NCBI RefSeq assembly: GCF_044324785.1
Contig: NZ_CP172127.1
DNA: 64,000 nucleotides
Source: Escherichia coli
Lineage (GTDB): Bacteria > Pseudomonadota > Gammaproteobacteria > Enterobacterales > Enterobacteriaceae
Strand: one strand, 5' to 3'
Below are positions 43,101 through 45,553 of this stretch, piece after piece. Every line of letters starts with the position of its first letter. Position 1 is the first letter of the stretch. A program made the position numbers.

Positions 43101-45553
43101 GCCTGATCATGAGTGAAAAAAGCATTGTTCAGGAAGCGCGGGATATTCAGCTGGCAATGGAATTGATCACCCTGGGCGCTCGTTTGCAGATGCTGGAAAG
43201 CGAAACACAGTTAAGCCGCGGACGCCTGATAAAACTCTATAAAGAACTGCGCGGAAGCCCACCGCCGAAAGGCATGCTGCCATTCTCAACCGACTGGTTT
43301 ATGACCTGGGAACAAAACGTTCATGCTTCGATGTTCTGTAACGCATGGCAGTTTTTACTGAAAACCGGCTTGTGTAATGGCGTCGATGCGGTGATCAAAG
43401 CCTACCGTTTATACCTTGAACAGTGCCCGCAAGCAGAAGACGGACCGCTGCTGGCATTAACCCGTGCCTGGACATTGGTGCGGTTTGTTGAAAGTGGATT
43501 ACTGCAACTTTCCAGCTGCAACTGCTGCGGCGGCAATTTTATTACCCACGCTCACCAGCCTGTTGGCAGCTTTGCCTGCAGCTTATGTCAGCCGCCATCC
43601 CGGGCAGTAAAAAGACGTAAACTTTCCCAGAATCCTGCCGATATTATCCCACAACTGCTGGATGAACAGAGAGTACAGGCTGTTTAACTGATACGGTGTG
43701 GCGCAACATTCCAGCAGCGGTAACGACGTACCGCTGCTTTTTTTTGCCCCAATCGCGCGTTAACGCCTGACGACTGAACATCCTGTCATGGTCAACAGTG
43801 GAAGGATGATGTCGTGCTTATCTTATTAGGTTACCTGGTTGTTCTCGGTACAGTTTTCGGCGGTTATTTGATGACCGGTGGAAGCCTTGGAGCACTCTAT
43901 CAACCCGCTGAACTGGTGATTATTGCCGGTGCAGGGATTGGGTCATTTATCGTCGGCAATAATGGCAAAGCGATTAAAGGCACGCTGAAGGCGCTGCCGT
44001 TGCTGTTTCGTCGCTCCAAATACACCAAAGCAATGTATATGGATCTGCTGGCTCTGCTTTATCGGTTGATGGCGAAATCGCGGCAGATGGGGATGTTTTC
44101 GCTGGAACGTGATATTGAAAATCCCCGTGAGAGCGAGATCTTCGCCAGCTACCCACGCATCCTTGCGGATAGCGTCATGCTTGATTTTATCGTCGATTAT
44201 CTGCGTCTGATTATCAGCGGTCACATGAACACCTTCGAAATCGAAGCCCTGATGGATGAAGAGATTGAGACGCACGAAAGCGAGGCAGAAGTCCCGGCGA
44301 ACAGTCTGGCGCTGGTCGGGGACTCACTTCCGGCGTTTGGTATTGTCGCGGCTGTGATGGGGGTCGTTCACGCGTTAGGTTCAGCCGATCGTCCTGCCGC
44401 CGAGCTGGGGGCGCTTATCGCACATGCGATGGTGGGGACTTTCCTCGGTATTTTATTGGCTTACGGATTTATATCTCCATTAGCGAGTGTTTTACGTCAG
44501 AAAAGCGCCGAAACCAGCAAAATGATGCAATGCGTCAAAGTCACACTGCTTTCTAATCTGAACGGTTACGCACCGCCTATCGCCGTTGAGTTTGGTCGCA
44601 AAACGCTCTATTCCAGCGAACGTCCATCGTTTATTGAACTGGAAGAGCATGTGCGTGCGGTGAAAAATCCGCAACAACAGACGACAACCGAGGAAGCATG
44701 AAGAATCAAGCGCATCCGATTATTGTCGTCAAACGACGCAAAGCCAAAAGCCACGGGGCAGCACATGGATCGTGGAAGATTGCTTATGCCGACTTTATGA
44801 CCGCGATGATGGCCTTTTTTCTGGTGATGTGGCTAATCTCCATCTCCAGCCCAAAAGAGCTGATTCAGATTGCGGAGTACTTCCGGACTCCACTGGCGAC
44901 TGCGGTTACGGGCGGCGATCGCATTTCTAATAGTGAAAGCCCAATTCCCGGCGGTGGTGATGATTACACCCAAAGCCAGGGGGAAGTGAATAAGCAGCCG
45001 AACATCGAAGAGCTGAAAAAACGCATGGAGCAAAGTCGATTGCGGAAATTGCGTGGCGATCTCGACCAGTTGATTGAGTCCGATCCGAAACTGCGGGCGT
45101 TACGTCCACATCTCAAAATCGATCTGGTCCAGGAAGGTCTACGTATTCAGATCATCGATAGCCAGAATCGTCCGATGTTCAGAACCGGCAGTGCCGACGT
45201 CGAACCCTATATGCGCGACATTCTGCGCGCCATCGCGCCCGTTCTGAATGGTATTCCCAACCGAATTAGCCTCTCGGGTCATACCGATGATTTTCCCTAC
45301 GCCAGCGGTGAGAAAGGTTACAGCAACTGGGAGCTTTCTGCCGATCGTGCCAATGCATCCCGCCGCGAACTGATGGTTGGTGGGTTGAATGGCGGCAAAG
45401 TGTTACGTGTCGTCGGCATGGCGGCAACGATGCGCTTAAGCGATCGCGGACCTGATGATGCCGTCAACCGTCGCATCAGCCTGCTGGTACTGAACAAACA
45501 AGCCGAACAGGCCATTTTGCATGAAAACGCCGAAAGCCAGAATGAGCCAGTAA

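Follow-up and report, generated by a model that had tools for sequence, protein, structure and literature searches.

The closest described counterpart of the locus analyzed here is MotR of Escherichia coli K-12 (b4828), a small RNA whose promoter lies within the flhC coding sequence and also serves the motAB-cheAW operon (Melamed et al. 2023, eLife 12:RP87151, PMC10578931). The sigma-28 promoter was placed at this site by transcription start site mapping, ChIP-seq and northern blotting of a fliA deletion mutant, in which MotR is absent; furthermore, co-immunoprecipitation with Hfq enriches a MotR band of about 95 nt, and larger MotR bands are explained by transcription past the terminator (PMC10578931). 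The RNA has also been seen on northern blots by an independent laboratory (PMC10654059) and, from RIL-seq data, was assigned to positions 1,977,208-1,977,300 of the K-12 genome (Bar et al. 2021, PMC8175672). MotR of K-12 pairs, via approximately nt 46-55, inside coding sequences, notably those of rpsJ and fliC, and its target chimeras have been reported from RIL-seq (PMC10578931). It raises the level of S10, flagellar gene expression and the number of flagella in a nusB-dependent manner, and both a chromosomal mutation in the seed (M1) and overexpression alter S10 levels and flagella number; the authors of that study speculate that S10-NusB promotes readthrough of the motR terminator (PMC10578931).

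Several other small RNAs share parts of this organization. UhpU, FliX and FlgO are, like MotR, FliA-dependent, Hfq-bound and derived from mRNA untranslated regions, with a terminator hairpin at the end (PMC10578931). These three RNAs, however, come from 3' UTRs, with FliX and FlgO being made by processing, whereas MotR is a primary transcript of a 5' UTR that is produced by premature termination from a promoter common to the downstream operon. The same succession of promoter, leader, terminator and coding sequence, with readthrough giving rise to the mRNA, is found among the 5'-UTR sRNAs and attenuation products of E. coli (Adams et al. 2021, PMC7815308). Unlike in those cases, the promoter and the first 37 nt of MotR are located inside the preceding gene, flhC, and therefore the MotR terminator would double as that of flhC. 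In the supplementary files of Adams et al. 2021 that were searched (PMC7815308), no entry was found for motA, flhC or a 3' end at 1977208.

The window analyzed here, a stretch of 64,000 nt from an E. coli genome (contig NZ_CP172127.1), encodes flhD, flhC, motA, motB and cheA in this order on the plus strand, according to the ORF calls (Table 1). We are nearly certain (probability of about 0.96) that the stretch in question is the known motR locus, where transcription starts at a sigma-28 promoter within flhC and either stops at a terminator, yielding the 95-nt MotR, or reads through into motAB-cheAW. The feature is already known: it is the published and annotated sRNA MotR. The K-12 gene is found at the same locus and has the same promoter, +1 position, terminator and 95-nt length, and the MotR sequence in the window differs from it by T49 alone. 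The sequence at hand establishes the promoter, the terminator, both ends of the RNA, the identity with the annotated gene and the conservation across genera. With a 501-nt query spanning the flhC-motA junction, matches of 95-100% identity were obtained in 5376 of 5426 complete E. coli genomes, and the RefSeq annotation beneath these matches names flhC and motA. MotR sits on the coding strand between the two genes, overlapping the 3' end of flhC, and the layout in MG1655 is identical. An ORF of 45 amino acids on the minus strand, at 43644-43781, was regarded as spurious, being antisense to a conserved RNA.

Table 1. Features of the motR locus and its surroundings (positions in the window)
Feature	Coordinates	Strand	Basis and remarks
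flhC ORF	43109-43687	+	ORF call; stop codon 43685-43687
GTAAAAAGACG, adjoining the -35 element on its upstream side	43607-43617	+	Synonymous flhC positions invariant across genera
-35 element TAAACTTT	43618-43625	+	Pattern match; flhC codons (CG)T AAA CTT T(CC)
-10 element GCCGATAT	43637-43644	+	Pattern match; flhC codons GCC GAT AT(T)
MotR small RNA, 95 nt	43651-43745	+	MG1655 annotation motR b4828, identity 94/95, published primers
CTGCTGGA, MotR nt 5-12, 5' strand of the proposed alternative helix	43655-43662	+	Folds; flhC codons Leu-Leu-Asp
Target-pairing (seed) region, MotR nt 43-55, ACGGTGTGGCGCA	43693-43705	+	Published M1 oligonucleotides; predicted rpsJ duplex
TCCAGCAG, MotR nt 60-67, 3' strand of the proposed alternative helix	43710-43717	+	Coincides in part with the terminator 5' arm (lower 5 bp)
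Intrinsic terminator: AGCAGCGGTA, loop ACGACG, TACCGCTGCT, T-run	43713-43745	+	Terminator scan, folding
motA	43814-44701	+	ORF with GTG start; first gene of motAB-cheAW; reached by terminator readthrough

The preliminary description of this DNA had claimed a sigma-28 promoter in the last 70 nt of flhC, and the pattern search indeed finds TAAACTTT-N11-GCCGATAT there, at 43618-43644, with two mismatches against the sigma-28 consensus TAAAGTTT-N11-GCCGATAA. In the alignment, this promoter is fully identical to that of K-12 MG1655. Sites with at most three mismatches occur five times in the 64-kb window compared to 0.41 expected from dinucleotide shuffles, and a count of five was reached in only one of 100 shuffles; the pattern of sigma-28 sites across the window fits a flagellar region. 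Among the remaining ones are a site at 48204 that matches the consensus perfectly and, adjoining the fliC ORF, a divergent pair (18078 and 18198). The +1 position is at ACAACUGCUGG, 43651, that is, 7 nt past the -10 element. From the identity of the promoter with that of K-12, we infer that transcription of this RNA depends on FliA in the present strain as well.

The ends of the RNA can be derived from published reagents. The primer SM001 starts with ACAACTGCTGG, and the MotR* variant is defined by 'TGC at positions 6-8' (PMC10578931); therefore, the +1 corresponds to position 43651 of the window, one nucleotide ahead of the 5' end near 43652 that had been put forward earlier. The template used for T7 transcription of MotR (gBlock) ends with ...GCTGCTTTTTTTT (PMC10578931), which places the 3' end at 43745. 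The resulting length is exactly 95 nt, compared to the RNA of about 95 nt that had been proposed. In MG1655, RefSeq annotates the ncRNA motR (b4828) on the minus strand, at 1977208-1977302, with a length of 95 nt and an overlap with the end of flhC; the window is identical to this gene at 94 of 95 positions, with no indels, so that the name MotR, given in the preliminary description, is correct. Within the 163-nt 5' UTR of motA, the RNA makes up the initial 95 nt, and its nt 1-37 overlap the end of flhC. A scan of positions 42000-45000 against Rfam 15, with E values up to 1, returned no match; MotR apparently is without an Rfam family, and therefore no independent covariance model stands behind this RNA.

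The strong terminator that had been placed upstream of motA, at 43712-43746, is real as far as the hairpin and the T-run are concerned, but its bounds are those given in Table 1, because position 43746 is a G. The terminator scan shows a stem of 10 bp, six of them G-C, in which 43713-43722 pairs with 43729-43738 around a loop of 6 nt; the T-run consists of eight T, at 43738-43745, the first of which closes the stem. The folding energy of the isolated hairpin is -16.7 kcal/mol, and the 95-mer forms the hairpin in its minimum free energy (MFE) fold as well as in its centroid. MotR of the window thus carries a terminal hairpin and a U tail, the putative Hfq-type features. The terminator is located 26 nt past the flhC stop codon and 68 nt ahead of the GTG of motA, and the scan found no other terminator-like site between the two genes; being the sole site of this kind, the hairpin should end the flhDC transcripts, too. 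Thus, judging by position alone, the same hairpin presumably ends both MotR and the flhDC transcripts.

Under the proposed scheme, sigma-28 (FliA) RNA polymerase would start at 43651, from the promoter within the last codons of flhC, and part of the transcripts would end at the terminator to give the 95-nt MotR, which can be expected to bind Hfq as it does in K-12. The remaining transcripts would read through, giving the motAB-cheAW mRNA; such readthrough, anticipated in the preliminary description, has been reported for K-12, where the larger bands were ascribed to it (PMC10578931). Together with Hfq, MotR would then pair inside the coding sequences of rpsJ and fliC, as extrapolated to this strain from the K-12 literature, which is also the source for the sigma-28 dependence, the Hfq binding, the readthrough and the targets in general. 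The promoter, the terminator and the published Hfq-bound RNA of about 95 nt agree with one another on the architecture of a 5'-UTR-derived regulatory sRNA that had been suggested for this region. A chance pairing of a promoter-like sequence with a hairpin was considered and rejected, given that the locus is annotated, described in the literature and conserved.

The conservation of the locus was traced in a FlhC-based scan of one genome per species, which gave 80 loci from Enterobacterales, 79 of them readable; the addition of a metagenome scan resulted in 114 distinct sequences that carry this hairpin. All 79 readable loci have the sigma-28 promoter at the same position, with the end of the -10 element exactly 40 nt before the flhC stop in each of them except for the frameshifted locus L070. 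Throughout Enterobacteriaceae and Erwiniaceae, the hairpin CCAGCAGCGG...CCGCTGCT followed by T6-9 is present and yields an RNA of 91-96 nt in the locus scan; in the set of distinct sequences, the predicted length is 90-96 nt in 113 of 114. Pectobacterium and Brenneria possess a non-homologous hairpin at approximately the same distance, and in Serratia, Yersinia and Dickeya no convincing terminator was found by the FlhC locus scan. Across 65 sequences, 97.6% of the cells in the terminator stem are paired; three pairs of the upper stem show compensatory changes, and there is hardly any variation in the lower 8 bp. Between genera, conservation is poor across nt 38-59, in the middle of the RNA, and the experimentally defined seed falls in the least conserved part.

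The promoter and the 5' part of MotR lie within a coding region, and the proportion of conservation that is due to the protein was assessed from codon usage. Among the last 61 flhC codons in 77 sequences, 10 of the 11 amino-acid-conserved codons in 43607-43669 are represented by a single codon, compared to 0 of 22 upstream of 43607 (Fisher p = 1.2e-7). The codons GTA, AAA and CGT at 43607-43617 are identical in 77/77 sequences, and AGA in 68/77; the -10 codons GCC and GAT are invariant (77/77), and both Leu codons in the 5' part of MotR are CTG in 76/76. Such invariance of synonymous sites means that conservation acts on the nucleotides and not on the protein alone; it spans the 11 nt upstream of the -35 element, the promoter and roughly the first 19 nt of MotR (nt 2-19), and the upstream segment, GTAAAAAGACG, may be an extension of the promoter. 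These observations bear directly on the possibility that the promoter-like sequence is maintained solely for the FlhC residues it encodes (R-K-L-S ... A-D-I) and is not a functional promoter. The amino acids encoded by the -35 and -10 codons are indeed conserved in 77/77 sequences, but third positions and the choice of Leu and Arg codons are invariant within the elements and free just upstream (p = 1.2e-7), and the transcription start site mapping, ChIP-seq and northern blot of the fliA deletion in K-12 contradict this reading (PMC10578931), to which we assign a negligible chance. Slightly less remote, although still highly improbable, is the reading under which the hairpin is merely the terminator of the flhDC operon and the short sigma-28 transcript is incidental and functionless. 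The location of the hairpin shortly past the flhC stop, as the sole terminator-like site before motA, and the poor conservation of nt 38-59 speak for this reading. The published binding of Hfq and the RIL-seq target chimeras argue against it, and the phenotypes of the M1 seed mutation and of overexpression contradict it (PMC10578931). The maintenance of the RNA length in all but one of the 114 distinct sequences and the presence, in Pectobacterium and Brenneria, of a non-homologous hairpin at the same distance argue against it as well.

A third reading goes beyond the MotR annotation without excluding it: the main and oldest role of the segment would be that of a switch acting in cis in the motA leader, with an intrinsic antiterminator, so far unreported, that would be formed by nt 5-12 and nt 60-67, and with the seed as a later addition. 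We consider this proposal tentative, with odds distinctly below even. Nucleotides 5-12 (CUGCUGGA) are fully complementary to nt 60-67 (UCCAGCAG), and the helix between them and the terminator helix (nt 63-72/79-88) are predicted to be mutually exclusive, sharing the 5' arm of the terminator. Under this model, nt 60-67 would be captured once made, sequestering the lower half of the terminator 5' arm, and the 95-nt RNA would be the product of the 'off' branch. Two exclusive helices that share the terminator 5' arm are also the basis of the trp and pyrBI attenuators; unlike those, the motA leader has no evident leader peptide, ligand or protein sensor, and its alternative helix is less stable than the terminator helix, the switch being a prediction only. 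In support of the model, nascent RNAs of 68, 72 and 78 nt contain the 5-12/60-67 helix in their MFE folds as well as in their centroids, and a full-length conformer with this helix is predicted at -25.5 kcal/mol, compared to -28.7 for the terminator fold, a gap of 3.2 kcal/mol. The perfect 8-bp complement is found in 110 of the 114 distinct sequences, and the other four retain seven pairs. The change G11A always occurs together with C61T (L056, L078, L162 and L183), with no mixed states; C61 is outside the terminator stem, and G11A changes an Asp of FlhC to Asn. Furthermore, conservation within the RNA is highest in the strands of the helix, including the invariant CTG codons (76/76), in contrast to the variable seed region. 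Finally, the MotR* variant (nt 6-8 changed from UGC to GAG) was called 'more abundant' and 'identified by chance' by its authors, who gave no explanation (PMC10578931); this change would destroy the helix, with a predicted nascent fold at -11.3 compared to -20.3 kcal/mol.

Several points speak against a cis-acting switch. The terminator fold is thermodynamically favoured, and the upper half of the terminator can nucleate freely, without opening of the alternative helix, so that strand displacement could be fast. The compensatory support comes down to one double change in a single lineage, represented by four distinct sequences; the other pairs of the helix are invariant, except that one is broken in a sequence from E. 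albertii (A63C). By chance, 2.1% of dinucleotide shuffles of the upstream 56 nt contain such an 8-nt complement, and the nascent folds have modest z-scores (-1.6 to -2.0). The conserved segment, nt 1-19, is longer than the helix strand, leaving nt 13-19 unexplained, and CTGCTGG is retained in Pectobacterium and Serratia, where the terminator is of another kind or missing. The published model ascribes the readthrough to antitermination by S10-NusB (PMC10578931).

The only difference between MotR of the window and that of K-12 concerns the target-pairing region: position 43699 (MotR nt 49) is T in the window and A in K-12. The loss-of-function mutation M1 alters the GTG at 43696-43698 (nt 46-48) (PMC10578931); this triplet is intact in the window, and T49 is directly beside it. 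The T49 allele of the window is present in identical form in 582 complete E. coli genomes, including that of an O157:H7 strain, and the K-12 allele with A49 in 2897. T49 also occurs in Salmonella, Citrobacter, Enterobacter and E. albertii; because the motif reads GTGTGG across other genera, T49 is ancestral and A49 derived. When MotR nt 1-62 was compared with whole targets using RNAduplex, unrealistic duplexes of 50-90 nt with long loops were obtained, and only the local 12-bp core with rpsJ, recomputed on short windows, was retained. The predicted core covers positions +141 to +152 of the rpsJ coding sequence, in agreement with the 'about +150' of the K-12 study, and its predicted energies are -22.4 kcal/mol with A49, -18.7 with T49 and -11.2 with M1. 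A49 pairs with a U of rpsJ, and T49 results in a U-U mismatch that lowers the predicted stability by 3.7 kcal/mol; the pairing site in rpsJ is unchanged in 5412 of 5424 genomes, and therefore there is no compensation for this mismatch. Given that A49 is derived and strengthens the predicted pairing with rpsJ, regulation of S10 may be weaker in strains with T49, among them the present strain and at least one of O157:H7. The predicted core with fliC, between MotR nt 51-58 and fliC +219 to +226, is unaffected by the position-49 polymorphism. The fliC alleles themselves vary between strains.

The locus thus re-identifies a known sRNA, and the novelty of the analysis is confined to showing that the reasoning from sequence in the preliminary description was sound. 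Two questions for the biology of the flagellar regulon are raised nevertheless. One is whether the leader itself contributes, via the conserved helix between the 5' end and the terminator arm, to the choice between MotR and the motA mRNA. If real, the antiterminator would set the ratio of the 95-nt MotR to the full-length motAB-cheAW mRNA, and it would account both for the invariance of its strands, with their synonymous flhC sites, across Enterobacteriaceae and Erwiniaceae despite the drift of the seed, and for the accumulation of more of the short RNA in the accidental MotR* mutant; moreover, one and the same hairpin could then stop flhDC transcripts and yet leak for sigma-28 transcripts. 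The other question is whether the common natural polymorphism at position 49, adjacent to the seed, alters the effect of MotR on rpsJ. The candidate antiterminator and this polymorphism are modest leads for research on flagellar regulation.

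The 5' end of MotR, the 95-nt sRNA transcribed from the sigma-28 promoter inside flhC, is perfectly complementary over 8 nt (43655-43662) to the flank and the lower 5' arm of its own terminator (43710-43717). This complementarity is kept in 110 of the 114 distinct sequences, with one compensatory double change among them, and the paper on MotR (Melamed et al. 2023, PMC10578931), as far as we could see, does not mention it. In the MotR homologue of Escherichia albertii, a change of A63 to C costs the terminator its bottom pair and also breaks a pair in the proposed alternative helix, the candidate antiterminator formed by nt 5-12 and 60-67; the T-run of this homologue is just 6 nt long.

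The MotR sequence of the window differs from that of K-12 at a single position, 43699 (nt 49; T for A), which adjoins the GTG triplet altered in the published M1 seed mutation. T is also the state at this position in other genera, and 582 E. coli genomes carry an allele identical to that of the window; in the predicted duplex of MotR with rpsJ, T49 would introduce a U-U mismatch.

The invariance of synonymous flhC positions immediately upstream of the motR -35 element (see the table) suggests that the promoter extends over this stretch, which is possibly an UP-like element. Besides the match of motR, the window contains four matches to the sigma-28 consensus, two of which form a divergent pair.

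Promoter-related and terminator-like features of the window
Feature	Position	Strand	Context
GTAAAAAGACG	43607-43617		upstream of motR -35 element; synonymous flhC positions invariant across 77 species
Sigma-28 match, perfect	48204-48230	+	just upstream of ORF starting at 48241, presumably tar
Sigma-28 match	18198-18224	+	divergent pair, flanked by presumed fliD and fliC
Sigma-28 match	18078-18104	-	other member of the divergent pair
Sigma-28 match, weak (3 mismatches)	26032-26058	-	between ORFs 24898-25632 and 26383-27039
Hairpin, then T-run	about 19807-19830		fliC 3' UTR

Downstream of the fliC ORF (18294-19787), the 3' UTR (19788-19950) differs from that of K-12. The published 5' primers for FliX and FliX-S have no match in this region, where the only FliX primer site found is that of the downstream primer (19855-19876). 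Together with the hairpin and T-run, the missing 5' primer sites indicate that this strain may have a shorter or different FliX. The uspC-flhD spacer (42229-42458 and 42450-43200) lacks the IS1 element that lies upstream of flhD in MG1655, the annotated IS1H being exactly the stretch skipped in the alignment of the window with MG1655; by homology, the antisense RNA AsflhD annotated in K-12 (b4839) would be expected on the minus strand at about 42558-42777.

Among the homologous flhC-motA loci of Enterobacterales, that of Enterobacter cloacae DSM 26481 has a FlhC frame of 203 aa in which the match spans residues 1-173 only, suggesting a frameshift close to the 3' end of flhC, despite which the MotR-like sequence is intact. 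In L076, L079 and L081-L083, which are loci of Serratia, Yersinia and Dickeya, no clear terminator was detected. The Pectobacterium and Brenneria loci (L071-L075) contain a hairpin, ATCTATCACTG...CAGTGATAGAT, followed by T's, about 60-96 nt past the predicted +1, with a predicted leader RNA of ~96 nt. This hairpin is unrelated in sequence to the MotR terminator, lies at an equal distance from the conserved promoter and may represent a replacement of the MotR-type terminator by convergence.
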